59,076 nucleotides of DNA from Eubacteriales bacterium (GCA_045651025.1 JAZRRU010000078.1:1-59076), one strand, 5' to 3'. Numbered from the stretch's first letter, positions 42,601 to 58,200 are shown. A program made the numbers and translations. Notes: generated by a model not told the origin, from the letters alone.

Positions 42601-45600
42601 GGGCAGTAACTGCTATTGACACGACCGGCTCTGCTTACATGGACGACACAAGCTTCTGGTGGGCAGGCGTTAAGACTACCGATGGTGTGACCACCGAAAG
42701 AATGGTTGTCGCAATTCCTCAGAACCTTCTTACCGACACCACCTACGGCTACGTTAAGGATCTCGCTCTCGGAACGAAGCTCGTTTGGGCTGAAGGCGAA
42801 GGAAATATTGACGGAACTGTCAAAAAGTACTCTGAAGCAGGCGGATCCGCTTCTGACTACATGATGAACGCTTCGCTCAAGCTCGCATGTACTCACGAAA
42901 AGAAGAACGCAGCTACTTGCGAAAAACCCGAGACCTGCGTTGCTTGTGGTGAAGAAACCGCACCCGCTCTCGGTCACTCCTACACCACCTACGTTTCCGA
43001 CGGCAACGCAACCTGCGGAGTTGACGGAACGAAGACCGCAACTTGTGACAACAACTGCGGTACCAAGTCCACTATTGAAGACGAAGGTTCTGCAAAAGAA
43101 CACGTTTATAACTACGTATCCGACGGCAACGCAAAATGCGACGTCGACGGTACGAAGAGTGCATACTGTGCAAACGGTTGCGGTAGTAAATCTACCGTAC
43201 CCGACGAGGGCTCTGCGCTCCAGCACGTTGAAGGTGAACCCGTTTATAACGGCGATGCAACCTGTAACGCTGACGGTACTTACACAATCAGCTGTACGCT
43301 CTGCGGACAGTCCAGATCTGTCACCGCAGTTGGAACTCAGCTCTCGCACAGCTTCACTAAATTCTACAACGACAACAACGCAACCTGTACGGGTGATGCT
43401 ACCGAAACCGCAACCTGCGATCACGGATGCGGAGCGAAGCAGACCAACACCCTCACCGGCACGGCTCTCGGTCACGAATTCGGCGCGGGCTGGTCGAAGA
43501 ACGAAGAAGGACATTTCCACAAGTGCGTACGTTGCCCTGAAATCAGCGATGAAGGCGTTATCCCCCATAACTTTGAGCTTCAGGCAGACGGCGTAAACGA
43601 AAAATGTACTGATTGCGGTTACGAAAAGAACCACGTTCATTTCTTCGGCGAAGTTGTTGATCAGATCGATCCTACCTGTACCGCTAACGGTCAGAAGGCA
43701 TACTATGTCTGCTCCAGCTGCGGTAACTGGTTCAACGGCAACGATGCAAGTGCAGACGGCTTTGCTGAATATGAAGGCAAGGCGATGGATCAGGATATCA
43801 TCCTCGCTGCACTCGGTCATAGCTTCACTACCTACGTATCCGACGGTAACGCTAAGTGCGAAACCGACGGTACAAAGACCGCTGAGTGTGACAACGGATG
43901 CGGCGAAACCAAAACCGTAACCGATGTCGGCTCGAAGACCGGTCACAGCTTCACCCAATATAAGTCGAACAACGACGCAACCTGTACCAAAAACGGTACC
44001 GAAACCGCGATCTGTGACAACTGTGATGAGTTCAACGTCCGTGAAGAAGTTGACTCGGCAAAGGGTCACAGCTTCAAGAACTACGTATCCGACGGCAACG
44101 CAACCTGCGAAGCTGACGGTACGAAGACTGCTGAGTGTGAAAACGGATGCGGCGAAACCAACACTATTGCTGACGACGAGTCCGCACTCGGTCACAGCTT
44201 TACGGTATACACGTCTAACGGCGATGCAACCTGTACCAAAAACGGTACTGAAACCGCGAACTGCGACCGCGAATGTGGCGAAACTCACACTCGTGAAGAT
44301 GATGAATCCGCACTCGGTCACAGCTTCACCAACTACGCACCCAACAGCGACGCAACCTGTACCGAAAACGGTACTGAAACCGCTAACTGCGACCGCGAAT
44401 GTGGCGAAACTCATACTCGTGAAGACGATCAATCCGCTCTCGGTCACAATATGGCTCCTGCGACCTGTACCGAACCTTCGAAGTGTCAGCGCGACGATTG
44501 CGACCACACCGAAGGCGAAGCACTCGGACACAGCTTCACCACCTACGAATCCGACAATAACGCTAAGTGCGAAGTTGACGGTACTGAAACCGCTAAGTGC
44601 GACCGCGAATGTGGCGAAACTCACACTCGTGAAGATGAAGGTTCCGCACTTACTCACGAATTTACTAACTACGTAACCTCCAAAGAAGCAACCTGTACCG
44701 AAAACGAAGAAGTAACCGGCACCTGTAAGCACGGTTGCGGAACCACCGATACCAAGGTTGTTGAAAACTCTGCTCTCGATCACGAATGGACCGAAGCAAC
44801 CTGTACCGAACTTTCGAAGTGCGAGCGTTGCGGCGAAACCACCGGCGAATTGAAAGAGCATAACATCGTAAACGGCAAGTGTACCGTCTGCGGACTTGGC
44901 GACAAGACCGTTGCATACGTACCGCTTGACCAGCGTCCCGTTAACCTTGACAGAGTTGAATATCTCGCGGGCTCTGCTGACTTCGAAATCAGAACTCCTG
45001 CTTTTGAAGATATCGTAACCTGGATGGATACGAACGTCGATGCTCGCGGCGGCACTGCTCACGGCGGTAACCCCGTAAACATTCTTGCATGGCTCAAACA
45101 GCAGGAAAAAGAAGGCGTTAACAACTACGTCATCTCGCTTGACCAGGCACTCTCCGGCGGTCTTGTAGAATCCCGCCGTCAGACCGGTTACCACAGCGCA
45201 AGCGATTGGGGTGTTACAACCACCACGTTTGAGGGCTCTGCAGAACAGGCGATGATCAACTTCATTGCTGAACTCGCAAGCAATCCTCAGAACAAGGTCG
45301 TTCTCGTTGAAACCGTTATGCGTCTCGCTCCTGAGACCGAATATAAGGGCTTCAACGGAAATATGTACGAAGCATTCCGTCAGTACGGCGAAATCCAGAG
45401 ACAGGAATTCTCCGCTGACTCGATGACCATCGGTCAGGCAACGATCGATAAGATATACGATGCATACGGTAAGGACGCAAACGGCGCTACTCTCGGCACC
45501 ACGTACAACGGCATCAACGTTGCTACGAATAGCGGCTATACCAGCGCAGACTTCTTCAATGCTCGTAAGCGTAAGCTCGAGTTGATGACTGCTCTCGTTC

Positions 45601-48600
45601 AGACCGAAGGTATGGACGGCATCAAGCATCTCTTCATCGGCGTTGACGACTCCTCGTCTGCTCACAACATCCAGACCAACGACAGAACCTACTACACGAA
45701 GCTCCTCGAAGGCAAGCCCTACAGCTATGACTTGTTCGGCGGTGCTGACGAACTCGGTATGCTTGGTATGGCACGTCTCTCCGCAGACTACTACGGATAC
45801 GACGACAATGCTAATAAGATCGATGCAAACGTCACCTACTTCGGTGAAGGTTACACCGGTCAGGCAGACCACTACGACTTTGAAACTCTCGAGCAGAACG
45901 TCGACAAGCACCTTGCTGCTCTCAACATCAACAAGGTTGATCGTGAAGACGTTAACACGCTCCAGATCCTCATTCTCGCACGTGAAACTACCGATATCGA
46001 AAGCCAGGCAACCGATGCTCTTGCACATGCACTTATCGATAAGCTCCGTGCGAACATCAAGGCAGGCATTCCTACCTGCGTAATCGACGCTTCGAACAAC
46101 TGGTCCAACAACAAGAGAATCTTCTCTGACGCGTTGTTCTGGGATTTCGAAGGCACAGCAAACGGCGCAGAAGGTCCGTTCGATATCGCACAGACGCTCT
46201 CGATCAGCTGCTGGAACACCGTTGGTAATACGGTTGGTCTCGGTCTCTCGAGCGCAGTCGGACGTTATGCATACCTCACGAAGACGGATGAAGTCACCGA
46301 AGACTCCAACCAGGCATTCGTTCAGGGCTTCACCTTCGCTCTCGTTAAGGATATGGCATACCGTGCACATACCTCGGGTAACGTAACCGATGCATCCGTC
46401 GACTACGTTGCAGGATACAACAACTTCCCGTTTGACGGTCTCGGCAACGGCGAAAATGAATGGGATACTGCAAACAGAATCCTCAAGAAGCTCAACGCTC
46501 GCAACACCATCCTCGGTAAGAAGGGCGAAAACGGCTTCAACAAGGTACTCTACAGCCGTGTAACGATCGATCCTAACTCGGTTGAATGGACTTGGGACCG
46601 TGACTTCGAATGTAACTTCGACGTTGTAGTTGGTAACACCTCCGACGCAACGGTTGATCCTAACTTCACCGAAGCAACGATTCAGTTGACCCACGGTAAC
46701 CCGTCCTACTCGACTTACGGTTACAATTATCATTACCTCAGCAATACCTATGTATTCGCTGCAGATGATTACATCTCGGCTCCCGACATTTCCGGAACTA
46801 CTGCAGCCGGCTTCCAGTGGTGCTATAAGGCATTGCTCGAATATGACGACGTTGCAGGCAGATATAGAGTTGTTGCAACCGATGGAAACGGCAGTACCTA
46901 TTATGCAAACTGGCACGTCGGTGTTGACAGAATTGTAATTATCAGCCACGCTGATAATGGATCTTCTCTCATCCCGAATCTTAAAGTTAATGAGTATCTC
47001 GAGCTCACGGGTACAACCCACGAGGCACTCAAGGATCTTGATGACGATGCTTTGACCGGCGTCAAGCTCACGAAGGTTATGAACTATCAGGCAGCGGAAA
47101 TCACCGCTCCTGAGGTTCTCACCCCCGTCCTCAAGGCACCCTCTGCGGCGAATAAACTCACCGTAGCATACGTTCCTCTTGATGACAGACCCGTTCACAC
47201 GGATCGTGTCGTCCTCACTGCAGAAGAAGCGGGCATCGAACTCTTGATGCCCGAAGAAGAGGATTACAAGACTTATCTTGCAAATTCCTCTACCGGTGAA
47301 AAGGGACATGGCGGTAATACCGCGAACATCCTCGCTTGGCTTGAAGAACAGGAAGCAAGCGGCATTGATTACTATGTAATCGCGCTCGACCAGGTATTCT
47401 CCGGCGGTCTTGTTAACTCCCGTTACAGTGACCCGTCGTTTGATGGTCAGCTTTCTGCGCAGGATTTGAAGACTGCGAACTTCCTCGTTGACCTCGCGAA
47501 GAACAACTATGTTGTTTATACCGATACGATCATGCGTCTTGCGGCAACGTATCCTTATAAGGATCACGATGCAAACACCTATACCGCTCTTCGTGCATAC
47601 GGTCACTATGACCACTTGCCTCTCGAAGAAGGTAGGGTTGGCAGTATCGCAACCCTCGACCTCGAACACGTAATCAGCGGTTACCGTTACGGCGATAATG
47701 GTGTTTATGGTCTTTACAGAGGCGGTACGATCGACGGTGCAACCGGATCGGTTTCCGACGACATAATCAAGGGCTATCTCGGTGCTCGTGAGCGTAAGCT
47801 CAGAATCACCGACTATATGCTCAGAAATGCAGGCGCGAACATCAACCATTACTATATTGGTATGGACGACTCGTCTTCCGGTGAAAACATTCAGGCGAAC
47901 GAAAAGAGATATCTCGATATGATCATCAGAAAGACCGGCTCGAATGCTCTCGTATTCGCCGGTGCGGACGAAATGAGCGTTATGGGTATCTCCGCAATGA
48001 CCAACCTTTATATTAAGGAAGATGCAACAAAGATTCCTGCTGCAGACGGCTGGACTGCTACCAAGGTTCCCGTAAACGTTGTTTACTTCGGTGACCGCAC
48101 TTGGCAGGCAGACGCTTACGATAACGGTTCTCTCGGAACTGCAATCGACCTCCACCTCAAGTCGCTTGATGCATATCAGGTTGCTGAAACTCACAAGCTC
48201 GAACCCGGTGTAATTCAGCTTGTTGTTGTTGGTCGTGGTACCGAAAAGGTACACTTTGCAGGATCCGACACCGCTCTTGCACAGACGCAGGTTGCAGGTT
48301 CGAAGGCGAACGCAATTGCTGCTGCGGATTATATTGATGAACAGCTCGATGCGAACAGACCTGTTGCAATCATCGACGTTTCCTTCTGGAACGCAATCCA
48401 CCTTAACTTCGTTGTTGAGGCGATGAGAAACAAGGGCATCTTCGATAGACCTGACTTCAACGAAATCCTCGGCTACAGCACTTGGAACACCGCAGGTAAC
48501 GCAATCGGTCTTGCAATGGGTCAGGCATTCGCACGTTACAACTACCTCATGAATGCTACCGTTGTTACCAAGGATTCGAACCTCGGATTCCTCAAGCTGC

Positions 48601-48977
48601 TCGCTTACTCCTTCGTTAAGGATTCGGCTTACAGAACCAACTCCTTTATCAAGGATGCTAACGGAAATTATTGGTCGATGGACACTTCTTCGGCGAAGGC
48701 AATCAGCTGTGGCACTGTAATCTACAACACTGCCGGCTTCACCGGTAACGAATTCTTGAACTACGTCAATAACAGCACCGAGATGCTTCTTGGCGGTTGT
48801 GTATCCTCGGATTACGATTATAACCACAACGTTTCGATCCATACTCCTGTATGGCCCGCAAACTGGGGTCCCAGAAGCTTCGAATGCTGGTTCACTGCAG
48901 AAGCAACTTCTGATGAACCTACCGAACGTGGTTCCGGTGATGGAATCATCCTTCCTGACGAAGAATTCAACCAGTAA
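36678..48977 (+). CDS. Giant (4099-aa) secreted multidomain protein: CBM9/DOMON-like modules, acidic linker, ~24 Cys3-His mini-modules, three copies of an unknown ~140-aa domain, two DUF4127-like domains
   Basis: A single uninterrupted ORF with a GTG start and signal peptide KRTLALALALIMLVTMIPATMLSAFA. There are several 'VDG.LDD.GW' modules (aa ~50-1500) and an acidic linker DDDDEGEEDNE...SDESDESDESDVSED (nt 41226-41387). Cys-rich regions lie at nt 41814-42340 and 42888-44894. DUF4127-like signatures 'VAYVPLDQRPVN ... ISLDQALSGGLVESR' start at nt 44910, and 'VAYVPLDDRPVH ... IALDQVFSGGLVNSR' start at nt 47163. There is no C-terminal anchor or sortase motif. A strong terminator follows. Confidence 0.9.
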   Translation: MKRTLALALALIMLVTMIPATMLSAFARGKGVYANTTENQLIDRADGQYIPETVVVDGVLDDTGWREDDWNRVSSENGTWNVQYPEKDLGFSYKYNIRKDYYYLYGALSVPTNTTGLVTVWLNDGTEVGEYTDVFTFDITGEALSDGVAAYEGNGKWTRKTAGGAVITDSSEYFYEQSKVVFKQDGENTVIEFKSLLADFCPAKNPTVKYFVSVDVKGSDESLYHPMIDIKEPDGYNRDSYFPALNKPDSWPSKYAGKIDADDIMGIGDDSFPSAVTIDGKFDEATWAMHTDFYSRWYERTNLPNYKDNVDYNKPYADLTYNSLPYSDYYQTGAEHDVRVADDYIYGASLVLNSYGDGVAYVRFNLYDDLGNGQYNQVSIYLAGNGNNLSSAIATWFTGGAENATAGSFWNIGMDAGTVTVGANLYSFEFRIDRSFGRGFIPDYYDFSVAVNTNGRYWGCANESNDGNNETADNTGGYKEHHPPYANSADEIAALKRSYYPVHHFSNALGEFYKPYTTYTPDGYLGVKAWPGLTFSAGGPVSGDWISKDNSSRVDGVHYMHSLRADYEFVYGAFHVQFDKEKLSGKNSEWKHGTKEHPAGGDVFSLWIANPKDTSYAHIIRYDVWTYIDENGKVQARIGGYNGRNNDVGGVGSYGYRDNYKAAFVDRSEEDGTYAFEYRIPLNSIGIELNINEDTTEKATDSQSTEIFKYYTSLSVVAPDNTSTNKDEVKYAAISWPKSGNHYTDSATGATYNVYPDGWGTPFAKTTIGTYNNFGFNAAATAMVLRYQDVIRSIEPDGRIVEEQRLDLDHIDWTNAEYREAPVYGEPIGGYEKFYVGSENVYLCARIDGDVSAYNTRFIFWAKNSANEIHKYEFYYDGANCKLAIDGVTQSADRTLYQYDVTSTNGATSFEAIIDIDTFGGRDGFEYFLEIQQKTEKEVLNRVSPKIELPEIANYASNINSVNAWYTNAGTVKDLIHFPREEITVDGDLNDNGWDKNEWIYVSTDINANMQETGLINTLFKTDFWYQIRVDDENMYVAAVINYSDSLDPADGVTPLAATKENIIAQLPGFRIWLKSGNNGSSVANGDSNTYTQYYDIRLNAKGEVQLRSDVNLLPTYANNTRPLYNKYYVPVTPAKDENGKYITDANGKYIYTSATSTSDPVVDTIKTLLDGETDLYGYTKYIIDESEANKNGTESQVLKGEEINPEDYESAGMLAGKKEGVEAGIMRFGNDAGYINSFNNGRPQTLTESSTVVEFKVGLDEFGGHEQFQYLVTSSCQADWGGSRTTMYPAITSEVDSTDSYFHYYYPYWHWEDGTAITMTESLRADCTLLTYKRPVITLGAKVSKTYMYQGKEVSALRMGGLWEEQYIRKVKELAATENNKEGYVASTGNYTDYWDVKEMGMIVLPTYLVGENKKNDVEHQGKYDLFRDSARIQWRDADGIVRWAGNDEINYPNSNFADYKNFAFYVTLVKIPTDVNMCFRGFVNYYDTPNGAPSYYDVIFERSIDMVIDAAKRTDDDDEGEEDNELPGGEFSRDDESGFTGTDGSDYETSRDESDESDESDESDVSEDVGYIVDENGVALDIAFPTHYYEGYKSLVYADINGLGYSVTNFHETYRSDDQTYFRQLYLVKDGDGHFEVMNISEPGDTSYLGWSVGKDVMVVSVHENHPNFSTFASYQKGDHLKLSGASDFDTIAGTGEDAEISATLNKVIACNHSAGFSEATCTEAARCKTCGKEDGAPLGHDYPIGAKPTCTESVKCSRCGYERDAALGHAASEYKHDSEKHWKVCERVIDGVVCGATFDSATHTFVDGKCECGYECTHTDTLVKVEANAPTCTEDGNIEYYRCSVCGCLYDDADGTNKLTAEDVVDPAHGHEYNNDGVNCDHCGKSKNLPIQITIAQPTIDYGPSYKNSVQIFAWTSGSQQIRAYTYKDTDDTSTYYPYTDTYSSAAENGPWTLIALDKVESEYIGVDGGTWAVTAIDTTGSAYMDDTSFWWAGVKTTDGVTTERMVVAIPQNLLTDTTYGYVKDLALGTKLVWAEGEGNIDGTVKKYSEAGGSASDYMMNASLKLACTHEKKNAATCEKPETCVACGEETAPALGHSYTTYVSDGNATCGVDGTKTATCDNNCGTKSTIEDEGSAKEHVYNYVSDGNAKCDVDGTKSAYCANGCGSKSTVPDEGSALQHVEGEPVYNGDATCNADGTYTISCTLCGQSRSVTAVGTQLSHSFTKFYNDNNATCTGDATETATCDHGCGAKQTNTLTGTALGHEFGAGWSKNEEGHFHKCVRCPEISDEGVIPHNFELQADGVNEKCTDCGYEKNHVHFFGEVVDQIDPTCTANGQKAYYVCSSCGNWFNGNDASADGFAEYEGKAMDQDIILAALGHSFTTYVSDGNAKCETDGTKTAECDNGCGETKTVTDVGSKTGHSFTQYKSNNDATCTKNGTETAICDNCDEFNVREEVDSAKGHSFKNYVSDGNATCEADGTKTAECENGCGETNTIADDESALGHSFTVYTSNGDATCTKNGTETANCDRECGETHTREDDESALGHSFTNYAPNSDATCTENGTETANCDRECGETHTREDDQSALGHNMAPATCTEPSKCQRDDCDHTEGEALGHSFTTYESDNNAKCEVDGTETAKCDRECGETHTREDEGSALTHEFTNYVTSKEATCTENEEVTGTCKHGCGTTDTKVVENSALDHEWTEATCTELSKCERCGETTGELKEHNIVNGKCTVCGLGDKTVAYVPLDQRPVNLDRVEYLAGSADFEIRTPAFEDIVTWMDTNVDARGGTAHGGNPVNILAWLKQQEKEGVNNYVISLDQALSGGLVESRRQTGYHSASDWGVTTTTFEGSAEQAMINFIAELASNPQNKVVLVETVMRLAPETEYKGFNGNMYEAFRQYGEIQRQEFSADSMTIGQATIDKIYDAYGKDANGATLGTTYNGINVATNSGYTSADFFNARKRKLELMTALVQTEGMDGIKHLFIGVDDSSSAHNIQTNDRTYYTKLLEGKPYSYDLFGGADELGMLGMARLSADYYGYDDNANKIDANVTYFGEGYTGQADHYDFETLEQNVDKHLAALNINKVDREDVNTLQILILARETTDIESQATDALAHALIDKLRANIKAGIPTCVIDASNNWSNNKRIFSDALFWDFEGTANGAEGPFDIAQTLSISCWNTVGNTVGLGLSSAVGRYAYLTKTDEVTEDSNQAFVQGFTFALVKDMAYRAHTSGNVTDASVDYVAGYNNFPFDGLGNGENEWDTANRILKKLNARNTILGKKGENGFNKVLYSRVTIDPNSVEWTWDRDFECNFDVVVGNTSDATVDPNFTEATIQLTHGNPSYSTYGYNYHYLSNTYVFAADDYISAPDISGTTAAGFQWCYKALLEYDDVAGRYRVVATDGNGSTYYANWHVGVDRIVIISHADNGSSLIPNLKVNEYLELTGTTHEALKDLDDDALTGVKLTKVMNYQAAEITAPEVLTPVLKAPSAANKLTVAYVPLDDRPVHTDRVVLTAEEAGIELLMPEEEDYKTYLANSSTGEKGHGGNTANILAWLEEQEASGIDYYVIALDQVFSGGLVNSRYSDPSFDGQLSAQDLKTANFLVDLAKNNYVVYTDTIMRLAATYPYKDHDANTYTALRAYGHYDHLPLEEGRVGSIATLDLEHVISGYRYGDNGVYGLYRGGTIDGATGSVSDDIIKGYLGARERKLRITDYMLRNAGANINHYYIGMDDSSSGENIQANEKRYLDMIIRKTGSNALVFAGADEMSVMGISAMTNLYIKEDATKIPAADGWTATKVPVNVVYFGDRTWQADAYDNGSLGTAIDLHLKSLDAYQVAETHKLEPGVIQLVVVGRGTEKVHFAGSDTALAQTQVAGSKANAIAAADYIDEQLDANRPVAIIDVSFWNAIHLNFVVEAMRNKGIFDRPDFNEILGYSTWNTAGNAIGLAMGQAFARYNYLMNATVVTKDSNLGFLKLLAYSFVKDSAYRTNSFIKDANGNYWSMDTSSAKAISCGTVIYNTAGFTGNEFLNYVNNSTEMLLGGCVSSDYDYNHNVSIHTPVWPANWGPRSFECWFTAEATSDEPTERGSGDGIILPDEEFNQ
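43809..44783 (+). repeat. In-frame tandem 126-nt (42-aa) repeats inside the giant gene
   Basis: The period was verified from ctcggtcac at 44187, 44313 and 44439. The unit is SFTxYxSxxxATCTxxGTETAxCDxxCGETxTxEDxxSALGH. Neighbouring copies 44187-44312 and 44313-44438 are nearly identical over their last ~85 nt. Confidence 0.85.
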
Positions 48978-49000
48978 TTCAAAAACGTCATAAAAAAATT

Positions 49001-49036
49001 CAAGCAGTTGCCTATTTGGGCAACTGCTTGTTTTTT
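49001..49036 (+). terminator. Rho-independent terminator of the giant gene
   Basis: A perfect 12-bp stem caagcagttgcc / ggcaactgcttg with a 6-nt loop, followed by T6. Confidence 0.85.
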
Positions 49037-49055
49037 GCATGAGATAGTTCTATAT

Positions 49056-49124
49056 GCCTTCCCCCTTGGGGAAAGGGGGACCGTCGGAGACGGTGGATGA
49101 GGGGTCGGATGCGAAGCATTCGTG
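49056..49124 (-). repeat. Second copy (inverted) of the ~69-nt nested-hairpin repeat seen at 21484-21552
   Basis: The reverse complement reads cacgaatgcttcgcatccgacccctcatccaccgtctccgacggtccccctttccccaagggggaaggc. Copy A reads cacggatgcttcgcatcctacacctcatccaccgtctccgacggtcccccttcccctcaaggggaaggc. Both carry the same accgtc-tcc-gacggt hairpin and a C-rich/G-rich terminal hairpin. Confidence 0.8.
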
Positions 49125-49240
49125 TTATCGTATCCGCAGTATTAAAAGGCAGGTTCGTTTTTGTGGATTTTTCGTTCGCATATTGACAAAAACCGTGCAA
49201 TATAATAAAATGGACTCAAACAGAAACGGAGGATTTTGAT

Positions 49241-49837
49241 ATGGAATACATCATTCGCGTTGAAAAAGAGATCGACTTTTCCCGCGCCGAAAAGGCGATG
49301 ATCTCGAACTATAAATGGACCGAGGGCTACGCTCCGAAAGCGTATGGCGAGCTCATCTACGTTGAGGATAAGGGCTTTGCGCTTCGTATGACGGCATTCG
49401 AGGAGAACCCGAAAGCGGTCTATACCAAATATGACGAACCCGTCTACAAGGACAGCTGTCTCGAATTTTTCGTAAGCTTCAACCTCGACAACGGCATGTA
49501 TATGAACTTTGAGATGAACGCAAACGGCGCGTTTCTCTCCGCGGTCCGTACCGACCGTAAGAACAAGACCGAGATTGACAAGCTCGCTCCGCTCCCCGAG
49601 GTAAAACCGTTCAAAGGCGACGGATTCTGGGGCGTTGAGACATTCTTCTCGCTTGATTTTGTCGAAAAGACAGCAGGGAAGTCCTCATTCGCGCGCGGCG
49701 AGAGCTTCAAAGGCAATTTCTACAAATGCGGTGACGAGACCGAGATACCTCATTTCGGTATGTGGTCACCCGTCGGAACCGAGAACCCCGACTTCCACCG
49801 TCCCGAGTTCTTCGGAACGCTCACGATTGAGAAATAA
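49241..49837 (+). CDS. Carbohydrate-binding family 9-like (CBM9_2/DOMON-like) protein, no signal peptide
   Basis: DSCLEFFVSF...NFEMNANGAFL...WGVE.F..L...F.GNFYKCGD...H matches my memory of the stand-alone CBM9-like family. RBS GGAGG. Confidence 0.7.
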   Translation: MEYIIRVEKEIDFSRAEKAMISNYKWTEGYAPKAYGELIYVEDKGFALRMTAFEENPKAVYTKYDEPVYKDSCLEFFVSFNLDNGMYMNFEMNANGAFLSAVRTDRKNKTEIDKLAPLPEVKPFKGDGFWGVETFFSLDFVEKTAGKSSFARGESFKGNFYKCGDETEIPHFGMWSPVGTENPDFHRPEFFGTLTIEK

Positions 49838-49840
49838 TCA

Positions 49841-49878
49841 AAAAAGAAAGGAACGCATTCAAAAGCGTTCCTTTTTTT
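49841..49878. terminator. Bidirectional terminator between convergent genes
   Basis: A5, stem aaaggaacgc-N8-gcgttccttt, then a T-run. Confidence 0.8.
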
Positions 49879-49889
49879 GTTTGAGCTGT

Positions 49890-50213
49890 TTACATCGTAC
49901 CCATATAAATTCGTTTTACAATGATATAGTCAGCAGAGGATATGCTTCCATTGTTGTCCAGATCGGCGGCGGTGAACTGGTCGCCGGTAAGCACGTAGGT
50001 TTGCATAACGTGACGTTTTACAATAATATAGTCAAGCACCTCAACCTCGCCGTTACCGTCAACGTCGCCGCGGACAAGCTCGGGAGACGGTTCTTCGGAA
50101 GAATCGTCGTGGAAAGGGTCATCGGGAAGAACTACCGGGGCGGCAAGCGCAGACACCGAGAAGAGAGTCAATAGAATTAATATCGCGGATATAAAAACGT
50201 TAAATCTTTTCAA
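49890..50213 (-). CDS. Small secreted dockerin-only protein (~107 aa)
   Basis: Signal peptide KRFNVFISAILILLTLFSVSALA, a short acidic linker, then GDVDGNGEVEVLDYIIVKRHVM ... DLDNNGSISSADYIIVKRIYMG (duplicated dockerin segment). TTG 50213 is preferred on RBS spacing over the listed TTG 50219. Confidence 0.75.
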   Translation of the reverse strand: MKRFNVFISAILILLTLFSVSALAAPVVLPDDPFHDDSSEEPSPELVRGDVDGNGEVEVLDYIIVKRHVMQTYVLTGDQFTAADLDNNGSISSADYIIVKRIYMGTM

Positions 50214-50280
50214 AATCAATCACCTTAAATCTTTTTCTTCATTTTATATCAATCACCGCACTTTGTCAATAAGGGTAAAA

Positions 50281-50315
50281 AAGAAAAAGCAAGACAGCCG
50301 AACGACTGTCTTGCT
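50281..50315 (-). terminator. Rho-independent terminator of tRNA-Val
   Basis: A perfect 10-bp stem agcaagacag / ctgtcttgct followed by TTTTCTT on the minus strand. Confidence 0.75.
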
Positions 50316-50317
50316 CT

Positions 50318-50394
50318 TGGTGTGGATGAATGGACTTGAACCAACGACCCCTTGCATGTCAAGCAAGTGCTCTAACCAACTGAGCTACACCCAC
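50318..50394 (-). tRNA. tRNA-Val (anticodon GAC), CCA encoded
   Basis: Hand fold of GTGGGTGTAGCTCAGTTGGTTAGAGCACTTGCTTGACATGCAAGGGGTCGTTGGTTCAAGTCCATTCATCCACACCA. It has D-arm GCTC/GAGC, anticodon stem CTTGC/GCAAG with loop TTGACAT, T-loop TTCAAGT and discriminator A. There is one U-U mismatch in the T stem. An upstream TTGATT-17-TAGAAT promoter is plausible. Confidence 0.78.
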
Positions 50395-50473
50395 ATATTT
50401 TATTGCGCTCGGTTATTCTATCACATAGAATCCAAAAAATCAATACCTTTTTTCATTTTTTCAAAATTAATAC

Positions 50474-50515
50474 AAAAAACCGATTTGACGGGACTTTACC
50501 CAACAAATCGGTTTT
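50474..50515 (-). terminator. Rho-independent terminator of the VTC/DUF4956/lipoprotein operon
   Basis: A perfect 11-bp stem aaaaccgattt / aaatcggtttt with an 18-nt loop, followed by a T-run on the minus strand. It lies 11 nt after the stop at 50526. Confidence 0.7.
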
Positions 50516-50525
50516 AGTTTTTGTA

Positions 50526-52541
50526 TTATCTTTTGCCGGGGCGTCCGCCCATACCGCCGGTACCGAAGACGAGGGTTACCATTTTTATTTCCGCCAAGGT
50601 ATTACCGCCGTCGATTTTCGTGTTGCGCGCAAAGCCGTTTTCATCAGCGTTTTCTACCGTACCGCCTGCGACGAGGGTATAGGTGTTGCCTGCTTGAATT
50701 TCGGGTGCGGAAATGACCGCCGACGAATAGTTTTTCGGGGGAGCGAACGAAACGATCACTCTGCCGTCGCTGTCGCAAAGCGAAAGAGGCGTTCCTGTGT
50801 TACAAGCAGAGAAGCTCGTGCAAATCGTGCCCTGGTTTTCGGCGTTCGTAAATCCCTGTGCCATACCCGAGCTTCCGAGAGCGATGAAGACACCGCCCTT
50901 TACGGTTGCTCCCGACTGACAGTCAAGCGCGCCGTTGCCGTTGTTCGTCGGTCCGCTTACAAGCGTTACACCGCCCGATACGGTTATCGTACCGTTCGAG
51001 TCAATGCCGTCGCCCAAGGCGTTAACGAGGACATTACCGCCCGAAATAATAATTTCGCCGACACCGTTGCCGAACATATCGCCGCCCATACCGCCACCCA
51101 TGCCGCCGGGCTTCGATCCGCTCGGTCTGCTTGCGCCTGCTCCGCCGCCGTGGTCACCGCCGCCGGGGTTGAAGCTTGTGTCGGGTCTCTGCGGTTTTTG
51201 ACCGCCTGAGCCCTCGGGGGGAGTCATGCCGTCCTGACTCGGGGGCTGTTGACCGCCGAAACCTTCTGGGGGAGTCATACCGCCTTGGTTCGGATTTTGC
51301 TGACCGCCGAGGTTATCGTTCGGTCTGCCGAAGTTCGGGTTCTGCGTTCCCGAGCCATCGTTGCCGCCTGCCGCGTTGAGTCCGTCGTCGGAAGCGGTTA
51401 TGTTGATTATACCGCCCGTGATAACGATCTTGCTCGCTTCGAGCCCTTCATAGCTTTTCTTGATGTTTATATTTCCGTTTTCGATTCCGAGGTCGAGGTC
51501 GGCGTGGATTCCGTCGTCCCCGCTCGAAAGCTCGAAGTTACCGTTTTTGATTGAAATGGAGTTGTTCGCGTGGATAGAGTCGTCCTGCGAGTTGATTTTG
51601 AAGTTGCCTCCGTTGATGATAACGTCGTTGACTGCTTTTAGTCCTTTCGCCGGCTCGTCGGAGTTGATTCCGCCGAGGCGGTTGTCCGCACCGCCGTTTG
51701 CGGTCACGGTGATATCCGCGGATTCGATCTTGAGAACAGTCTCCGCCTGAATACCGTCGTTGCCCGAGGTTATATTGAGCTTTCCGCTTTCGATATATAC
51801 GAAACCGCGCCCTTCGTCCTCGGCGTTATCGGAACGGATTCCGTCAGTGCCCGCGTCGACTTTTATCTTGGCATCGGAAATCTTGACGCAATCCTTACCG
51901 TCGATGCCGACACCGATCGAGAAAGCATTAAGCTCGCAGGAAAGGACGCGGATATCGTCTTTTGAGACGATTGCGTGTTTTGTGTTGCCCTTGACGGTGA
52001 GCGTGCCTTTCCCGTTCACGGTAAGGTCGGCACGCGAGAATATCGCACCGTCAACGTTCGTATCGCCGTCCTGAAGAGAATAGCCCGTTCCGTCGGAAAC
52101 AGTGTTGGCAGTACCTTCTTTTGCAGTGAGGAAAACCTTATCGCCCGACTTTATGAAAATGCAGGGGCCTTTCGAGTTCGAGATATTTGCGTTGTCGAGG
52201 ACTATCATGACCTTCTCGGAATCACCCACGGAGACGGTAATCATCTTGTCGGTTATATCGCCCGAGAGGATATAGGTTCCCTCGGAAGTGATTTCGATCA
52301 CGTCGCCTTTATCGACCGCGTTTTTCACGTCCTTTTGCTCAAACGTGCCCTCGCGGTCGCGATCGGAGAACGAGAAGTCCATTCCCGAAATATCTTTAAG
52401 CGAAATCGAAGCGCTTTCCGTCTTCACCTCCGAAACGTCCGAGTTATCATTTGAAACGTCGGGATTGTCGGCAGGAGCGCATGCGGAAAGGGAAAGGGCG
52501 AGAATTAAAATCACAGAAACGAAGCGCGAGAATTTGTTCAA
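50526..52541 (-). CDS. Lipoprotein with parallel-beta-helix repeats of the Cthe_2159 carbohydrate-binding type and an internal Gly/Pro/Gln/Met-rich tract
   Basis: Lipobox ILALSLSACAP. Repeated turns such as ITSGNDGIQA, SQDDSIHA, SSGDDGIHA and ASDDGLNA, interleaved with I.I.(N/G)G.(F/I).I strands. The low-complexity tract GGQQNPNQGGMTPPEGFGGQQPPSQDGMTPPEGSGGQKPQ...GGMGGGMGGDMFGNG is at nt ~51080-51360. Confidence 0.7.
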   Translation of the reverse strand: MNKFSRFVSVILILALSLSACAPADNPDVSNDNSDVSEVKTESASISLKDISGMDFSFSDRDREGTFEQKDVKNAVDKGDVIEITSEGTYILSGDITDKMITVSVGDSEKVMIVLDNANISNSKGPCIFIKSGDKVFLTAKEGTANTVSDGTGYSLQDGDTNVDGAIFSRADLTVNGKGTLTVKGNTKHAIVSKDDIRVLSCELNAFSIGVGIDGKDCVKISDAKIKVDAGTDGIRSDNAEDEGRGFVYIESGKLNITSGNDGIQAETVLKIESADITVTANGGADNRLGGINSDEPAKGLKAVNDVIINGGNFKINSQDDSIHANNSISIKNGNFELSSGDDGIHADLDLGIENGNINIKKSYEGLEASKIVITGGIINITASDDGLNAAGGNDGSGTQNPNFGRPNDNLGGQQNPNQGGMTPPEGFGGQQPPSQDGMTPPEGSGGQKPQRPDTSFNPGGGDHGGGAGASRPSGSKPGGMGGGMGGDMFGNGVGEIIISGGNVLVNALGDGIDSNGTITVSGGVTLVSGPTNNGNGALDCQSGATVKGGVFIALGSSGMAQGFTNAENQGTICTSFSACNTGTPLSLCDSDGRVIVSFAPPKNYSSAVISAPEIQAGNTYTLVAGGTVENADENGFARNTKIDGGNTLAEIKMVTLVFGTGGMGGRPGKR

Positions 52542-53206
52542 AGCGATTCACCTTCTTCTGCGGCTTCATAAATCGAGATTTCGAGGTTGCCGTTACGGCA
52601 TCGAAGCTCGTCGATGAGCTCTTTCGTCTGATTTCTGTTTTTGAGCTTTACGTTATAAGTAAGCTTGTAAAGCGATCCCATGTTTGAGGTTTTTGTTTTT
52701 ACGAGGCGTGAAGATTTCGTGTATTTCTTGAATATGTCGGAAAATGCGTCGGTGAAATGGAGCGATTCGGGAACGGTCACGTTAAGCGTCATAACTCCGT
52801 CGTTTCCGAAAGGGATAACCGAAAGCGCGACGAGAACCGCGCCGACGATAATCGTGAAAAGAATCGCAATTCCCACAAAACCGCCTGCACACGCAAGACC
52901 CGAGGTCATAGAGAGGAATATCGAAACGATATCCTTCGCTTTTCCGGGAACCGAACGGAAACGGACGAGGGAGAACGCGCCCATAACGGCGATGCCCGTT
53001 CCTACGTTGCCGTTGACCATCGTGATAACTGTCGAAACGATCATCGGAAGCAAAACGAGCGAAACGAGAAAGCTCTTCGTAGCGCCCGTGCTGAACGAGG
53101 CGCACGCCGCGGCGATTATACCGCAAATCAACGCACCCGCGATGCAGATGAGGTAGGCCTCGATCGAGAAGCCGTCTTTGATTACAGATTCAAACAGTGC
53201 AGACAT
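52538..53206 (-). CDS. DUF4956-family polytopic membrane protein
   Basis: It has 4-5 TM helices, the motif GAFSLVRFRSVPG..KDIVSIF, and a soluble C-terminal ~80-aa domain. It overlaps both neighbours (17 nt upstream, 4 nt downstream). Confidence 0.7.
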   Translation of the reverse strand: MSALFESVIKDGFSIEAYLICIAGALICGIIAAACASFSTGATKSFLVSLVLLPMIVSTVITMVNGNVGTGIAVMGAFSLVRFRSVPGKAKDIVSIFLSMTSGLACAGGFVGIAILFTIIVGAVLVALSVIPFGNDGVMTLNVTVPESLHFTDAFSDIFKKYTKSSRLVKTKTSNMGSLYKLTYNVKLKNRNQTKELIDELRCRNGNLEISIYEAAEEGESL

Positions 53207-53939
53207 ATTCTTTTTCTCCTTCGGGTTCGTAGGTTTCGATATTTAACGGCGAGAGGCTGGTGGAATCGAGGTAAGCTCTTCCGTATTTTGAAAAGGAAGA
53301 GGGGAGTATATTGAGCGCGTCAAGAGTGTTGGAGAGCCAGACAGGCATCGCGCCGTCGGTTTTGATCTCGAGGATATATTCACCCTTTTCGAGAACGGGT
53401 TTTCCGTGACTTCCGTGCTCAAGCGAAAGGTCGGTATCGCGGTAACGCACGTTTGAGTCGAACGTGACACGCAGGTTCGGCATATTTTTCACGAAATACG
53501 CCTCGCGCTCGTATGCGACAAGCATCCGCGGCTTCAGTTCGCCGTAGAAGTGCATCGCGTAGTCGATTTCGTTCATAATCTGTGATTCCTCGGGGCGCGC
53601 TCCGCTTTCGATATATTGCAACGCGCGCTCGAGCTTTGTGGAAATTCGGCGTTTATATACAACGCCTTTGAACTTTTTCTTTATTTCGAGGAACACCTTT
53701 GAGTCAACCGAGGGAGTTCCGTAGCTTCGGAGTCGGAGCTTTTCTTTGTAGGTCTTTGCCTCGAGCGAATTTCGTATGAGACGGAAGTCGTCCGTGTCGA
53801 GGTAGAGACTGCAGACCGTGCTGTTTTTGTGCGTGTCGGGAATAAGGCGGTCGGCGCAGAGGGATATGAGCGCTTCTTTTTCGGATTCGCTTATGCGATA
53901 TTTCTTTTCGATGCGCTTGAATACGTAAATATCCTTCAA
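53190..53939 (-). CDS. VTC-domain (CYTH/triphosphate-tunnel, polyphosphate-polymerase-like) protein
   Basis: TTG start 8 nt after GAGGAGG. Motifs FKRIEKKY, SLYLDTDDF, KEKLRLRSY, FLEIKKKFKGVVYKRR, YILEIK and C-terminal SFSKYG fit the tunnel beta-strand pattern of VTC/CYTH domains. Confidence 0.72.
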   Translation of the reverse strand: MKDIYVFKRIEKKYRISESEKEALISLCADRLIPDTHKNSTVCSLYLDTDDFRLIRNSLEAKTYKEKLRLRSYGTPSVDSKVFLEIKKKFKGVVYKRRISTKLERALQYIESGARPEESQIMNEIDYAMHFYGELKPRMLVAYEREAYFVKNMPNLRVTFDSNVRYRDTDLSLEHGSHGKPVLEKGEYILEIKTDGAMPVWLSNTLDALNILPSSFSKYGRAYLDSTSLSPLNIETYEPEGEKEYVCTV

Positions 53940-54011
53940 GCTTCGACCTCCTCTCGCGGTTTTGGTGATTTAATTTTAGTCCCGAAACTTAAATCAAGAA
54001 TAAAAAACTAT

Positions 54012-54977
54012 TTAAATTTTGTGAACTTCCTTCAGCTTTTCTTTGACACTCTCGGGTGCGATAATTTCGACGTCGCCTCCGAAGCTCATCACCCAGCCGA
54101 AAAACACGGGACCGGGAACGACGTTTACGTGGATTCGGAAACGGTCGCCGTCGTTGAGTATCGTAACGTCGCTTCCGAACCTGTCGAGCATAACGTTCGC
54201 AAGTCGGTTCGCGCAGGAGAGGGTGACACGTTCCGCCTTTCCGCCGAACATACCAAAGACCGAGCCCGAGTAAGAGGAAAGGTCGAACTTCTCAAACTCG
54301 TCCTTGCCTTGACGCTCGGTTTCGGAGCGAGTGAGGCGGAGCATCTTGTCGACGCGGTAATGGCGTATCTCGTTTTTGTCGTTATCGAACCCGACGAGGT
54401 AATAGTTGCTGTCGTCCCATACGAGCGCCCACGGGCTTACGTGATACCTCTTTCCGTCGCGGCGGAGCTCCTTTTTCTTTTCGGGCGTCCATGAAAAATA
54501 GGCAAAAGAAATGCAGACGTTATCTTCGATCGCTTCGTGGATTATATCGACCGCTTTGTAGATATCCTCGTTGTCGGATTTTGTGCGGTTCGAGACGAAA
54601 ACGGCGCGGTTGAGGGATTTTCGGTCGTGCTCGTTGGCGAGGGAAGCAAGCTTTTTGATGAGGGTCGCGCTTTTCTTTTCGGTTATGAACTTCGAGGCGC
54701 GGACTGCGTCGACGAGGAGCTTGAGCTCGGGGAGCTCAAATTCGCGCTTGCCGACGTAATATCCCGAATACCTGCCCGTCACTTTTTGCACGTCGAGCCC
54801 GAGCTCGCGAAGTGCTTCGAGATCGTCATAGATGCTCTTGCGCTCCGCGCTGATGCCGTAAGACGCCAGAGCGGTAATTATCTCGCGCATCGTTATCGGA
54901 TGCGTTTCGCTCGTGCGTTCGAGAAGTATCGAGCGGAGGAGTGCGAGTTTTTTCTTCTGGTTCGACGATTTTGCCAT
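54012..54977 (-). CDS. HTH + WYL + WCX domain transcriptional regulator (YafY family)
   Basis: N-terminal winged HTH (ITMREIITALASYGISAERKSIYDDLEAL), WYL core YHVSPWALVWDDSNYYLVGFD...IRHYRVDKM, and a C-terminal WCX-like segment ending VEIIAPESV. Confidence 0.85.
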   Translation of the reverse strand: MAKSSNQKKKLALLRSILLERTSETHPITMREIITALASYGISAERKSIYDDLEALRELGLDVQKVTGRYSGYYVGKREFELPELKLLVDAVRASKFITEKKSATLIKKLASLANEHDRKSLNRAVFVSNRTKSDNEDIYKAVDIIHEAIEDNVCISFAYFSWTPEKKKELRRDGKRYHVSPWALVWDDSNYYLVGFDNDKNEIRHYRVDKMLRLTRSETERQGKDEFEKFDLSSYSGSVFGMFGGKAERVTLSCANRLANVMLDRFGSDVTILNDGDRFRIHVNVVPGPVFFGWVMSFGGDVEIIAPESVKEKLKEVHKI

Positions 54978-55127
54978 AAATCTGCCTCTTTTTTTGCTTC
55001 CTATATATTATTTATATATTTTACCCCAAGGCGCGGGAGAAGTCAACCGAAACGGCAAGAAATCGAGCCGATTTGCCCCTATACGGGGGAGAATGTTAAA
55101 TTTTAATATAAATTTAGTAAAAAACCC

Positions 55128-55156
55128 TTGACAAACGCTTGAACGGGTGTTAATAT
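55128..55156 (+). promoter_or_regulatory. Promoter TTGACA-17-TAATAT for rpoB, giving a ~140-nt leader
   Basis: TTGACA at 55128-55133 and TAATAT at 55151-55156. It is divergent from the WYL regulator gene. Confidence 0.55.
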
Positions 55157-55299
55157 AGTAAACTGCATTACAATGCGGAACTTATACCATTTGCGGAGTT
55201 ATGTAAACCGAGCCGATGGCGTAATTTCCGTGCGGAAGGAACGGCAAACGTCGGTATTTCCGTTGTAATACGAGGAAAATGAATGGAGTGATTGGTTAA

Positions 55300-58200
55300 A
55301 TGGTAAAAGAACGACTTCTCGGAAAAACTCTCAGAATGTCTTTTTCCAAAAACGACGAGGTTCTCGAAATTCCAAATCTTATTGAAGTGCAGAAAAAATC
55401 CTTCAAAGATTTCGTCGAGCGTGATATCGGGGATGTATTAAGGGATATCTCGCCTATGGCGGATTATTCGGGCAATCTCATCATCGAGTTTGTCGATTAT
55501 TCTCTTGACGAAACGCCGAAATACAGCATCGAAGAATGCAAAGAACGCGATCTCAATTATGCTACTCCTTTTAAGGTGACCGTTCGTCTTACGAACAAGA
55601 TCACCAGCGAAGTCAAGGAGCAGGAGATCTACATGGGCGATTTCCCGCTTATGACCGACAGCGGTACCTTTATTATCAACGGCGCAGAGCGTGTCGTTGT
55701 TTCTCAGGTCGTCCGTTCGCCCGGTATTTATTATGAAGCGATTGACGACAAATCCGGCAAGAATCTTCTCGCTGCAACCGTGATTCCTTACCGCGGTGCA
55801 TGGCTTGAATACGAAACTGATAACTCCGACGTATTTTACGTTCGTATCGATAAAAACCGTAAGATTCCGATCACCGTTCTCCTTCGTGCGTTCGGTTTGG
55901 GAACCAACGAGGCAATCCTCGAAAAATTCGGTGACGAACCCCTTCTTAAAGCAACCTTCGAAAAGGATACTATGCTTCAGGAAGTTGACCGCGTTATCCA
56001 GACGGGCGGCATGACCAACCCCGTTGACGAAGCGCTCAAAGAAATCTACCGCAAGCTCCGTCCCGGCGATCCCCCCATCGTTGAGAGCGCGCAGATACTT
56101 ATCAACAACCTCTTCTTCGACGAAAAGAGATACGATATCTCTCAGGTCGGCAGATATAAATTCAACAAGAAGCTCGCTATCTCGAGACGTATCACCGGTC
56201 AGACTCTTTCCCGTGATGCTGTTTCTCCCATCACCGGCGAGGTTATCTTCGAAGCAGGCAGAAAACTCTCGAGAACCGAAGCAGAAGCTATCGAAGCTGC
56301 GGGCGTTTGCGAAGTTTGGCTTTCCTGCGCGGACGACGAAAAGGAAACCGAAGTTAAGGTATTCACCAACCGCATGGTTGATGCATCCGCTGTCACCGGC
56401 ATTTCCGACGATATTCTCGGATTCGGCGAATACGTTTCCATCGATCCTCTCGTTCGTATCATCAACGAGGTCGGACTTTCCGACGTTGATGCGTTCAAGA
56501 GAGCTTGCAACAAAGCTATCAACGAGCTCATTCCCAAGCACATCACGATCGACGATATTCTCGCTTCGATCAACTATATCTTCTGCCTCTACCATGGCGT
56601 AGGCAAGACCGATGACATCGACCACCTCGGCAACCGCCGTTTGCGTTCTGTCGGTGAGCTTTTGCTCAACCAGCTCAGAATCGGCTTCTCGAGAATGGAC
56701 AAGATCGTCAAGGAAAAGATGACGACTCAGGATATCGACACTGTTACTCCCCAGTCGCTCATCAACATCCGTCCGATCGTTTCCGCGATCCGCGACTTCT
56801 TCGGCTCGAGCCCTCTTTCCCAGTTCATGGACCAGGCAAACCCCCTCGCAGAGCTTACCCACAAGAGAAGACTTTCCGCGCTCGGTCCGGGCGGTCTCTC
56901 GCGTGACCGTGCATCCTTCGAGGTTCGAGACGTTCACTACACCCATTACGGCAGAATGTGTCCTATCGAAACTCCCGAAGGTCCGAACATCGGTCTTATT
57001 TCCTCGCTTGCAACTTATGCAAAAATAAACAAGTTCGGTTTCATCGAAGCGCCTTACCGCGTTGTTCGTAACGGCGTTGTTACAAAGGACGTCGTCTATC
57101 TTTCTGCTGACGCAGAGGACGAATACGTTGTTGCAACGGCAAACGAGCCGATCGACGAAAACGGCAACTTCCTCAACCGTAAGGTCGTTGCACGTCACAG
57201 AGACGAAATCCTTGAGTTCGAAGCTGCAAAGATCGACCTTATGGACGTTTCGCCGAAGATGGTCGTTTCGGTTGCAACCTCGATGATCCCCTTCCTTGAA
57301 AACGACGATAACACCCGTGCGCTCATGGGTTCGAACATGCAGAAGCAGGCAGTTCCGCTTATGATCACCGACGCTCCTATCATCGGTACGGGTATGGAAT
57401 ACAAGGCGGCTTACGACAGCGGCGTTCTCGTTCTCTGCCGTAACGACGGTATCGTTGAAAGCGTTTCCTCCGACAGCGTTGTTGTCCGTAAGGATAACGG
57501 CGGCACGGACGTCTATAATCTTATCAAATTCAAGCGCTCCAACCAGGGCACTTGCGTAAACCAGCGCCCCGTTGTCAAGAAGGGCGAGAGAATCCTTGCC
57601 GGCGATATCATCGCTGACGGTCCTGCGACCGATCACGGTGAAGTAGCGCTAGGTAAGAACGTTCTTATCGGCTTCATGACCTGGGAAGGTTATAACTACG
57701 AGGACGCAGTCCTCCTTAACGAACGTCTCGTAAGAGATGACGTTTATACCTCTATTCACATCGAAGAATATTACTGCGAATCGAGAGATACGAAGCTCGG
57801 ACCGGAAGAAATCACCCGTGAGCTTCCCAACGTTGGCGAGGACGCGCTCCGCGATCTTGACGCTGACGGTATTATCCGCATCGGTGCAGAGGTTCATTCC
57901 GGCGATATCCTCGTCGGTAAGGTAACGCCCAAGGGCGAAACCGAGCTCACCGCGGAAGAACGTCTCCTCCGTGCGATCTTCGGTGAAAAAGCCCGCGAAG
58001 TCAGAGATACTTCTCTCAAGCTTCCTCACGGCGAAACCGGTATTGTCGTTGACGTTCAGGTATTCTCGCGTGACGATTGTGATATTCTTGCTCCCGGCGT
58101 TATCAAGGTTGCAAGAGTTTACATCGCACAGAAGAGAAAGATCTCTGTCGGCGATAAGATGGCAGGTCGTCACGGTAACAAGGGTGTTATTTCCCGTATT

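Follow-up and report, generated by a model that had tools for sequence, protein, structure and literature searches.

Polyphosphate synthesis by VTC proteins is treated as eukaryotic in reviews and papers of 2023 and 2026, and bacterial polyphosphate is assigned there to PPK1 and PPK2. Bacterial relatives of VTC have been described as members of gene cassettes. In a study of Gram-positive Pel, the accessory genes lying side by side are given as cotH, a 'poly-phosphate polymerase', DUF4956 and DUF4832; the NELoc-2 locus of C. perfringens contains two VTC-domain genes with CotH; and a 2024 preprint on S. intermedius, which left the function open, modelled the same proteins and described Vtc4-like catalytic residues together with a protein of four transmembrane segments plus an ACT domain. 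In NCBI these VTC proteins carry the name 'polyphosphate polymerase domain-containing protein'. Here we analysed a three-gene locus of this kind, consisting of the genes for a VTC protein, a DUF4956 membrane protein and a Cthe_2159-type beta-helix lipoprotein (the trio), at 50526-53939 on the minus strand of a 59,076-nucleotide (nt) stretch of DNA from a member of the gut Clostridia, an Eubacteriales bacterium (GCA_045651025.1, JAZRRU010000078.1:1-59076), hereafter the window. The VTC/DUF4956/CotH cassette is already known and uncharacterised; what is new is the variant with Cthe_2159 in the place of CotH, for which no description was found in the literature searched. The same search gave no paper naming both DUF4956 and VTC. 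A preliminary description, made from the window sequence alone, had called the module uncharacterised; as a claim that the pair is unrecognised this was overstated, given the NCBI names and the descriptions of the cassette from pel operons and NELoc-2.

The open reading frames (ORFs) of the trio are tightly packed. The VTC gene (53190-53939, minus; 249 amino acids, aa) starts with TTG and has the ribosome-binding sequence AGGAGG at 53947-53952, 7 nt upstream of this start. As read from the sequence, its stop lies beyond the ATG start of the DUF4956 gene (52538-53206, minus; 222 aa), giving an overlap of 17 nt with GGAG upstream, and the DUF4956 stop overlaps by 4 nt (TTGA) with the TTG start of the lipoprotein gene (50526-52541, minus; 671 aa). 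A gene for a WYL/WCX regulator (54012-54977, minus; 321 aa) ends 72 nt before the VTC start, and the gap between these two genes, which lie on the same strand, contains no terminator. At the other end, an intrinsic terminator was found at 50474-50515 (minus), with a hairpin of -22.3 kcal/mol (z -5.2; 0/200 shuffles as stable) and a U-run directly after it. A probable promoter of the trio, TTTAAG-N9-TAAAAT, is located at 53973-53993 (minus) inside a 31-nt palindrome (53966-53996). We concluded that 50526-53939 (minus) is an operon complete in itself, which carries a promoter-like element and a terminator of its own. All four proteins matched their proposed Pfam families above the gathering score, and no NCBIfam model matched any of them. 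The preliminary description had given the same four minus-strand genes, the 17-nt overlap, the 72-nt gap and the terminator, and had called the last three genes translationally coupled; these points agree with the sequence and, for the coupling, also with the conservation reported below. Its overlap of DUF4956 and lipoprotein genes is right in length and wrong in letters, since it had been written as ATGA.

The first protein of the trio was assigned to the VTC family (PF09359) over profile positions 2-231 of 235, with an expectation value (E) of 9.5e-42 and 143.6 bits against a cutoff of 23. Its AlphaFold2 (AF2) model reached a predicted local distance difference test (pLDDT) value of 88 and a predicted template-modelling score (pTM) of 0.82. 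When the model was compared with solved structures by Foldseek, the top matches were yeast Vtc4 (3g3r/3g3q; E 5e-14 to 1e-13, query template-modelling score, TMq, 0.69), and the Vtc4 crystal and cryo-electron microscopy structures together spanned E 5e-14 to 1e-11 and TMq 0.61-0.69, followed by Vtc3 and Vtc2. The first matches outside VTC were CYTH adenylate cyclases and triphosphatases, from E 3e-8. A comparison of a profile of 26 homologues with the Vtc4 catalytic domain by hhalign gave a probability of 87.8% and E 3e-6. The tunnel-domain assignment proposed earlier is therefore supported at the level of both family and fold.

The residues which we take to be the functional ones of Vtc4 (K200, R264, R266, K281, K294, Y359, R361, R373, E426, S457 and K458, after Hothorn et al. 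2009) have equivalents in the window protein. The correspondence, with the Vtc4 residue second, is R9=R196, K13=K200, R69/R71=R264/R266, K87=K281, K96=K294, R98=R296, Y143/R145=Y359/R361, R157=R373, E191=E426, K193=K428 and S217/K218=S457/K458. All 14 mapped tunnel or catalytic positions, K458 included, are invariant across an alignment of 26 homologues, which answers the question of their conservation raised in the preliminary description. The HMMER alignment to the 3g3q chain spans R264 to R373 and the hhalign alignment spans all the residues listed; the Vtc4 sequence used in hhalign is identical to the PDB chain over 155 central residues and is numbered consistently with the published residues. 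Searches of the PDB with N- and C-terminal sub-profiles for the terminal catalytic residues returned chance matches only, and hhalign was used instead. Pfam found no SPX domain in the 249-aa protein and the model contains no transmembrane helix. These results showed that the protein is homologous to the catalytic tunnel domain of Vtc4, exists as a separate cytoplasmic protein and retains the mapped tunnel-lining and catalytic residues. Family, fold and residues together strongly suggest that it makes polyphosphate.

The second protein matched DUF4956 (PF16316; E 1.3e-10, 41.7 bits against a cutoff of 30.6), and its homologues, nearly constant in length at 222 aa, are labelled DUF4956 by NCBI. 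The LVRFR motif pointed out earlier is located at residues 80-84; in an alignment of 52 homologues L80, R82, F83 and R84 are invariant and V81 is conserved in at least 90%. The same alignment contains the invariant motifs G69-x-G71...G76-A-F-S-L-x-R-F-R-S85, N175-M-G-S-L and N205-G-N-L-E. As had been described, the protein is polytopic with a soluble tail: the AF2 model (pLDDT 78) has helices at 15-37, 44-63, 68-82, 90-107 and 111-130, and a tail at 138-214 with the order beta-alpha-beta-beta-alpha-beta, which is ACT- or ferredoxin-like. From the helices and the positive-inside rule we infer an N-out, C-in topology, with R82, R84, K89, K91 and the C-terminal domain then on the cytoplasmic side. 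Two relationships were considered and rejected for this protein. No sequence or fold match links it to the Vtc1/DUF202 channel. A relationship to MgtC was likewise rejected (Pfam MgtC E 2.1, 9.1 bits against a cutoff of 31.4; hhalign probability 0.65% with Salmonella MgtC); the likeness to the MgtC/SapB family is confined to overall architecture, a membrane domain with an ACT-like tail.

The third protein matched Cthe_2159 (PF14262) in two stretches with E 2e-83, and its residues 81-292 aligned to the solved Cthe_2159 structure (PDB 4peu/4phb) with E 5.6e-29. It begins with the lipoprotein signal peptide MNKFSRFVSVILILALSLSAC, in which the lipobox LSAC occupies residues 18-21 with Cys21, and it shows the repeated D-G-I turns characteristic of the family, as expected for the beta-helix lipoprotein that had been proposed. 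The tract said to split the beta-helix does lie between two beta-helix segments; it is about 105 aa long (residues ~390-495) rather than ~95 aa, and is of low complexity and rich in G, P, N and Q. A lipobox-like motif is present in about three-quarters of the lipoprotein orthologues. The low-complexity tract occurs in 33/64 of them, internally only in the closest relatives and in L043, L047 and L050, and at the C-terminus in many others; being so variable, it behaves as a linker. According to a citing paper, the founding member of the family binds an acidic polysaccharide (polygalacturonic acid) and was published as a cellulose and pectin binder.

To see how widely these genes occur together, we scanned one genome per species with two narrow peptide patterns, which gave 508 genome stretches encoding a VTC relative. 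The best 80 of them, hereafter the related loci, are all from metagenome-assembled genomes (MAGs) of gut or rumen Clostridia. The exact VTC protein of the window had no record in the contig index. The VTC family as a whole is large: a word-indexed search gave at least 7,800 matches, and a profile search of 1.84 billion representatives, a library that includes eukaryotic sequences, gave 8,240, 4,291 and 1,187 clusters at E ≤ 1e-3, 1e-10 and 1e-30, respectively. A DUF4956 gene directly follows the VTC gene in all 76 related loci with enough DNA (76/76), and a Cthe_2159 homologue directly follows DUF4956 in 64/74. The 4-nt overlap of the DUF4956 and lipoprotein genes recurs in 48 of these 64 junctions, as ATGA (19), TTGA (15) or GTGA (14). 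The flanks of the trio differ widely, with rpoB/rpoC, ftsK, lepA and RNase J among them, so the trio moves as an independent unit.

The pair of VTC and DUF4956 was also present in 6/6 distant loci, which were drawn from a plasmid collection (Lachnospiraceae, Peptostreptococcales, Enterococcus, Paenibacillus, Planococcus and Nonomuraea). Paenibacillus cellulosilyticus has the complete trio, its lipoprotein matching Cthe_2159 with 4e-80. Elsewhere CotH takes part: Pseudobutyrivibrio has CotH, VTC and DUF4956 within an exopolysaccharide cluster; Planococcus has VTC, DUF4956 and CotH, then HEAT-repeat and glycosyltransferase genes; Nonomuraea has VTC, DUF4956 and CotH; and in Enterococcus faecalis VTC and DUF4956 are followed by a response regulator, a histidine kinase and a CotH lipoprotein. 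Acetoanaerobium (L082) has a response regulator, a histidine kinase, VTC and DUF4956, after which comes, at 9501-11057 and in the position of a beta-helix or CotH gene, a membrane protein resembling phospholipase D (PLD) and cardiolipin synthase (PLDc_2 1.7e-42). For some cassettes this gene may point to a connection with lipids or phosphodiesters. CotH was found in L081, L084, L085, L086 and L038, the last being a MAG locus without the beta-helix gene in which CotH is 3 kb away, and the CotH proteins carry a lipobox or a signal anchor.

Since the pair is constant while the third gene varies, the invariant core is VTC plus DUF4956. In most loci that have a third component it is extracytoplasmic, either a Cthe_2159 beta-helix or a CotH kinase, and the trio itself is kept together in Paenibacillus and across many Clostridia of gut and rumen. 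The survey across Clostridia, suggested in the preliminary description, supports the trio as a translationally coupled unit. That description had further named CotH as a frequent companion of the pair in other Firmicutes that is missing here; the distant cassettes agree, and no CotH was found in the window by Pfam on the four proteins and 24 further large ORFs or by phmmer with two CotH seeds against all ORFs of ≥60 aa.

These observations can be arranged into a mechanism, which we favour tentatively, putting its chance as a whole somewhat short of even. Like Vtc4, the VTC enzyme would build inorganic polyphosphate from the gamma-phosphate of ATP, working at the membrane in a fixed complex with DUF4956. 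With its conserved R82/R84/K89/K91 patch and ACT-like domain facing the cytoplasm, DUF4956 would receive or regulate the nascent chain and would most likely pass it across the membrane. Outside the cell, the lipid-anchored beta-helix may capture or display the polyanion at the surface, and in other lineages a secreted CotH kinase in the third position may take exported polyphosphate as phosphoryl donor. The trio would be expressed from its dedicated promoter, the adjacent WYL protein being at most a lineage-specific controller. The inferred support falls from step to step: it is greatest for the making of polyphosphate, less for the complex with DUF4956, less again for the crossing of the membrane, and least for binding by the lipoprotein or use by CotH. 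Export or surface display of polyphosphate or another polyanion is plausible. Several observations speak for this arrangement, namely the family, fold and conserved residues of the VTC enzyme; the obligate pairing in 76/76 related and 6/6 distant loci; the movement of the trio as a unit; the 17-nt and 4-nt overlaps, which mean translational coupling and of which the shorter recurs in 48/64; the fit of the DUF4956 helices and charges to an N-out, C-in protein; a third partner that stays extracytoplasmic in most loci having one, though its family changes; and the binding of polygalacturonic acid attributed in the citing paper to the founding Cthe_2159 protein.

Other observations weigh against this mechanism. 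The preliminary description had drawn an analogy to the eukaryotic VTC domain, which threads polyphosphate through its own membrane channel; this analogy has no basis in homology, because neither sequence nor fold comparison relates DUF4956 to the VTC transmembrane domain. A DUF4956 profile found no VTC chain in the PDB even at E up to 10, and Foldseek with the DUF4956 model returned no VTC-complex chain in the best 50 and nothing at E ≤ 0.001. No solved transporter resembles the membrane part by PDB profile search and Foldseek, and the model shows no sign of a pore or an oligomer. Only the tail has Foldseek matches, weak ones to ACT, PII and ferredoxin-like domains, and tails of this ACT-like kind are met more typically in ligand-sensing regulators. 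Fusions of VTC to DUF4956 were looked for in the 120 closest DUF4956 homologues and in the five longest of the 150 best VTC representatives, and none was found. One protein of 618 aa is a VTC fragment with SpaA repeats and is probably a gene-call artefact. In 10/74 related loci no beta-helix gene lies directly downstream; together with the PLD-like gene of Acetoanaerobium, this means that the external partner is not obligatory. The literature searched reports no activity for any bacterial VTC protein and no experimental function of the VTC and DUF4956 pair, in accordance with the earlier statement on the pair, and the authors of the S. intermedius preprint make the case that the product may not leave the cytoplasm.

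The main competing explanation draws on several of these points. Polyphosphate would stay inside the cell, DUF4956 would tether the polymerase and regulate it through its ACT-like tail as a sensor of phosphate or energy state, and the lipoprotein would be a co-expressed carbohydrate or adhesin protein without direct contact to the product. The regulatory character of the structural neighbours of DUF4956 (ACT and PII-like domains, for the tail only), the lack of channel homology, the pairs without a directly downstream beta-helix gene and the leaning of the preprint authors towards cytoplasmic polyphosphate all fit it, as do the cellulose and pectin binding ascribed to Cthe_2159 in the citing paper and the dockerin proteins encoded by the host. 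On the other hand, the 4-nt overlap in 48/64 junctions argues for stoichiometric co-production of DUF4956 and lipoprotein, and an extracytoplasmic third gene in most loci having one would be difficult to account for with a product confined to the cell. We regard this explanation as rather unlikely.

The WYL gene had originally been suggested as a possible controller of the trio. Its product matched WYL (6.5e-14) and WCX (6.2e-10) above the Pfam gathering score, and its N-terminus gave a FokI_D3-like winged helix-turn-helix match (6.3e-06) below the cutoff; PADLOC WYL models also matched (2.8e-32) and are generic. That this protein is a dedicated ligand-sensing regulator forming one regulatory module with the trio is suggested by its position 72 nt upstream on the same strand without an intervening terminator, by the palindrome at the trio promoter in the window, and by the distribution of the promoter-like element. 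TTTAAG-N9-TA(T/A)AAT is present about 35-45 nt upstream of the VTC start in L001-L013, L024, L031, L032, L072 and L090, and the looser pattern TTTAAG-N8-11-TAnnnT at the same position in 11/12 WYL-linked loci tested versus 4/58 others. It is kept where the WYL gene has been separated from the trio by 1-5 kb, that is in L090, where the trio is ~1 kb from a WYL orthologue of 63% identity with a TM2 gene and ~640 nt between them, and in the rpoB-linked L072, where WYL is 5 kb off on the other strand; in L010, also rpoB-linked, WYL is ~1 kb upstream of the trio. The hexamer sits in the spacer, not at the position of a sigma-70 -35 box, and in the window is part of the palindrome, so the element may be an operator or a non-standard promoter, on which the WYL protein may act, though synteny does not show it.

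The linkage of WYL to the trio, however, tracks rpoB: the WYL gene adjoins the trio in only 12/80 loci, all of them rpoB-linked. In L087 (7001-9646) an orthologue of 59% identity lies beside rpoB/rpoC with genes for a SCIFF peptide and its radical-SAM maturase next, in the place of the trio, and downstream of it there is an ordinary promoter without TTTAAG. An orthologue of 55% identity is near neither rpoB nor the trio. As a separate observation, L090 contains at ~4790-5150, between the TM2 gene and the trio, two tandem GC-rich copies of ~190 nt containing cccgcggtataggtttgattaaagcat...ccgcgtgggtg, possibly a small mobile or repeat element.

A different type of regulator flanks the trio elsewhere. 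An OmpR-family response regulator and a histidine kinase adjoin the cluster in 13/80 MAG loci and in Acetoanaerobium, Paenibacillus and Enterococcus (for example L082 5744-7652, L083 5727-7837, L084 9623-11642, L080 14462-15145 and L065 12987-14288), so a two-component system is a more widespread neighbour of the trio than WYL. An identification of these systems as PhoPR was rejected, as they gave generic OmpR/PhoB-family matches only. RppA/RppB was the best NCBIfam model for most of the eight proteins, always below the cutoff, which suggests a dedicated, unnamed family. Taken together, the proposal of WYL as the regulator of the trio was weakened, and a module of all four genes seems to us unlikely.

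Less probable still, indeed quite unlikely in our view, is a third explanation, by which the tunnel enzyme makes no free polyphosphate and instead passes phosphate or pyrophosphate on to an acceptor such as a lipid carrier, wall glycan or exopolysaccharide, or hydrolyses a triphosphate, with DUF4956 and the surface protein serving envelope polymer modification. It draws on the presence of the cassette in exopolysaccharide or glycosyltransferase clusters (Pseudobutyrivibrio and Planococcus), by pel operons and in NELoc-2, on the PLD/cardiolipin-synthase-like gene after the pair in Acetoanaerobium, and on the catalytic diversity of triphosphate tunnel metalloenzymes, CYTH cyclases and triphosphatases being the next structural matches of the window protein. 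However, in fold Vtc4 leads the other matches by about six orders of magnitude of E-value, the Vtc4 polymer-contact residues including the K458 equivalent are invariant, and the trio of the window is not in a glycan cluster. A role as a known defence system was rejected, the PADLOC matches being the generic WYL models only.

The surroundings of the trio in the window are a tRNA-Val, a gene for a small dockerin protein, the WYL gene and rpoB. The rpoB start is near 55291, divergent from the WYL gene, and the gene runs past the end of the window; the RpoB cluster in related loci agrees with this assignment. The tRNA-Val lies downstream of the trio at 50318-50394. Within 50285-50443 (minus) this tRNA-Val(GAC) has a promoter-like site of its own, TTGATT-17-TAGAAT with TG, and a strong 15-bp terminator (50285-50318), and is therefore transcribed apart from the trio. 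Rfam over 49000-56000 found the tRNA-Val only, thus no riboswitch. The dockerin protein (49890-50219, minus; 109 aa) comprises little beyond a signal peptide and a type I dockerin (5.5e-12), and just beyond the tRNA a 198-aa CBM9-like protein (2.5e-32) is encoded at 49241-49837 (plus). Further dockerin proteins are a 1,783-aa S8 peptidase (736-6087) and a BspA-type leucine-rich repeat protein (26572-27855); the host appears to build a cellulosome-like assembly. At 36678-48977 (plus) an ORF of 4,099 aa encodes an unusually large putative secreted protein, which has a signal-like N-terminus, long Cys-rich 'CxxCG...H' repeat runs and, near the C-terminus, two DUF4127 domains (E 3.4e-97).

In its widest form, the favoured mechanism would amount to a third, VTC-type bacterial route to polyphosphate, with a membrane partner unrelated to the eukaryotic VTC channel, delivery to the surface, display there by a lipid-anchored beta-helix and, in the sister cassettes, ATP-independent extracellular phosphoryl use by CotH. 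This broad claim we consider doubtful. If true, it would be the first system found to secrete polyphosphate from bacteria, and the eukaryotic Vtc4 catalytic domain could plausibly have come from such a prokaryotic source. If the VTC enzyme is active, abundant gut and rumen anaerobes would have a PPK-independent polyphosphate pathway, possibly placing polyphosphate outside the cell, which would bear on Pel-linked biofilm matrices, on the NELoc-2 pathogenicity locus of C. perfringens, on the phosphoryl donor of secreted CotH kinases and on the origin of the eukaryotic VTC enzyme. For such questions the three-gene operon of the window is a convenient minimal system.

Compared with PPK1 and PPK2, the locus has the same presumed product, inorganic polyphosphate from a nucleoside triphosphate. 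The folds and families of PPK1/PPK2 are unrelated to VTC, and the PPK enzymes are not known to be paired with membrane and surface proteins; no PPK domain was found by Pfam in any window ORF tested. With the eukaryotic VTC complex the locus shares the PF09359 catalytic domain, for which Vtc4 is the closest solved fold with the mapped residues conserved, and the obligate pairing of a cytoplasmic enzyme with a small polytopic membrane protein. It differs in that the bacterial enzyme stands alone at 249 aa, with no SPX domain and no fused C-terminal three-helix transmembrane domain, and in that its partner DUF4956, with five helices and an ACT-like tail, is unrelated to the DUF202-type channel. 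Moreover, eukaryotic VTC is regulated by inositol pyrophosphates, whereas control in bacteria would be by transcription factors.

The lipoprotein resembles Cthe_2159 of Clostridium thermocellum, a polysaccharide-lyase-like beta-helix (4peu/4phb) that reportedly binds calcium, in its aligned residues 81-292 and its D-G-I turns. It differs from that protein in being lipid-anchored and twice as long, in having a second beta-helix segment and the ~105-aa insert, and in being translationally coupled to DUF4956. The closest described system is the CotH/VTC/DUF4956 cassette of Gram-positive pel operons and NELoc-2, which has the same pair on one strand with tight spacing and a third, extracytoplasmic protein. 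In that cassette the third protein is CotH, whereas here, in 64/74 related loci and in Paenibacillus, it is a Cthe_2159 beta-helix lipoprotein; and in the window, which is without pel, glycosyltransferase and DUF4832 genes, the trio stands alone between housekeeping genes.

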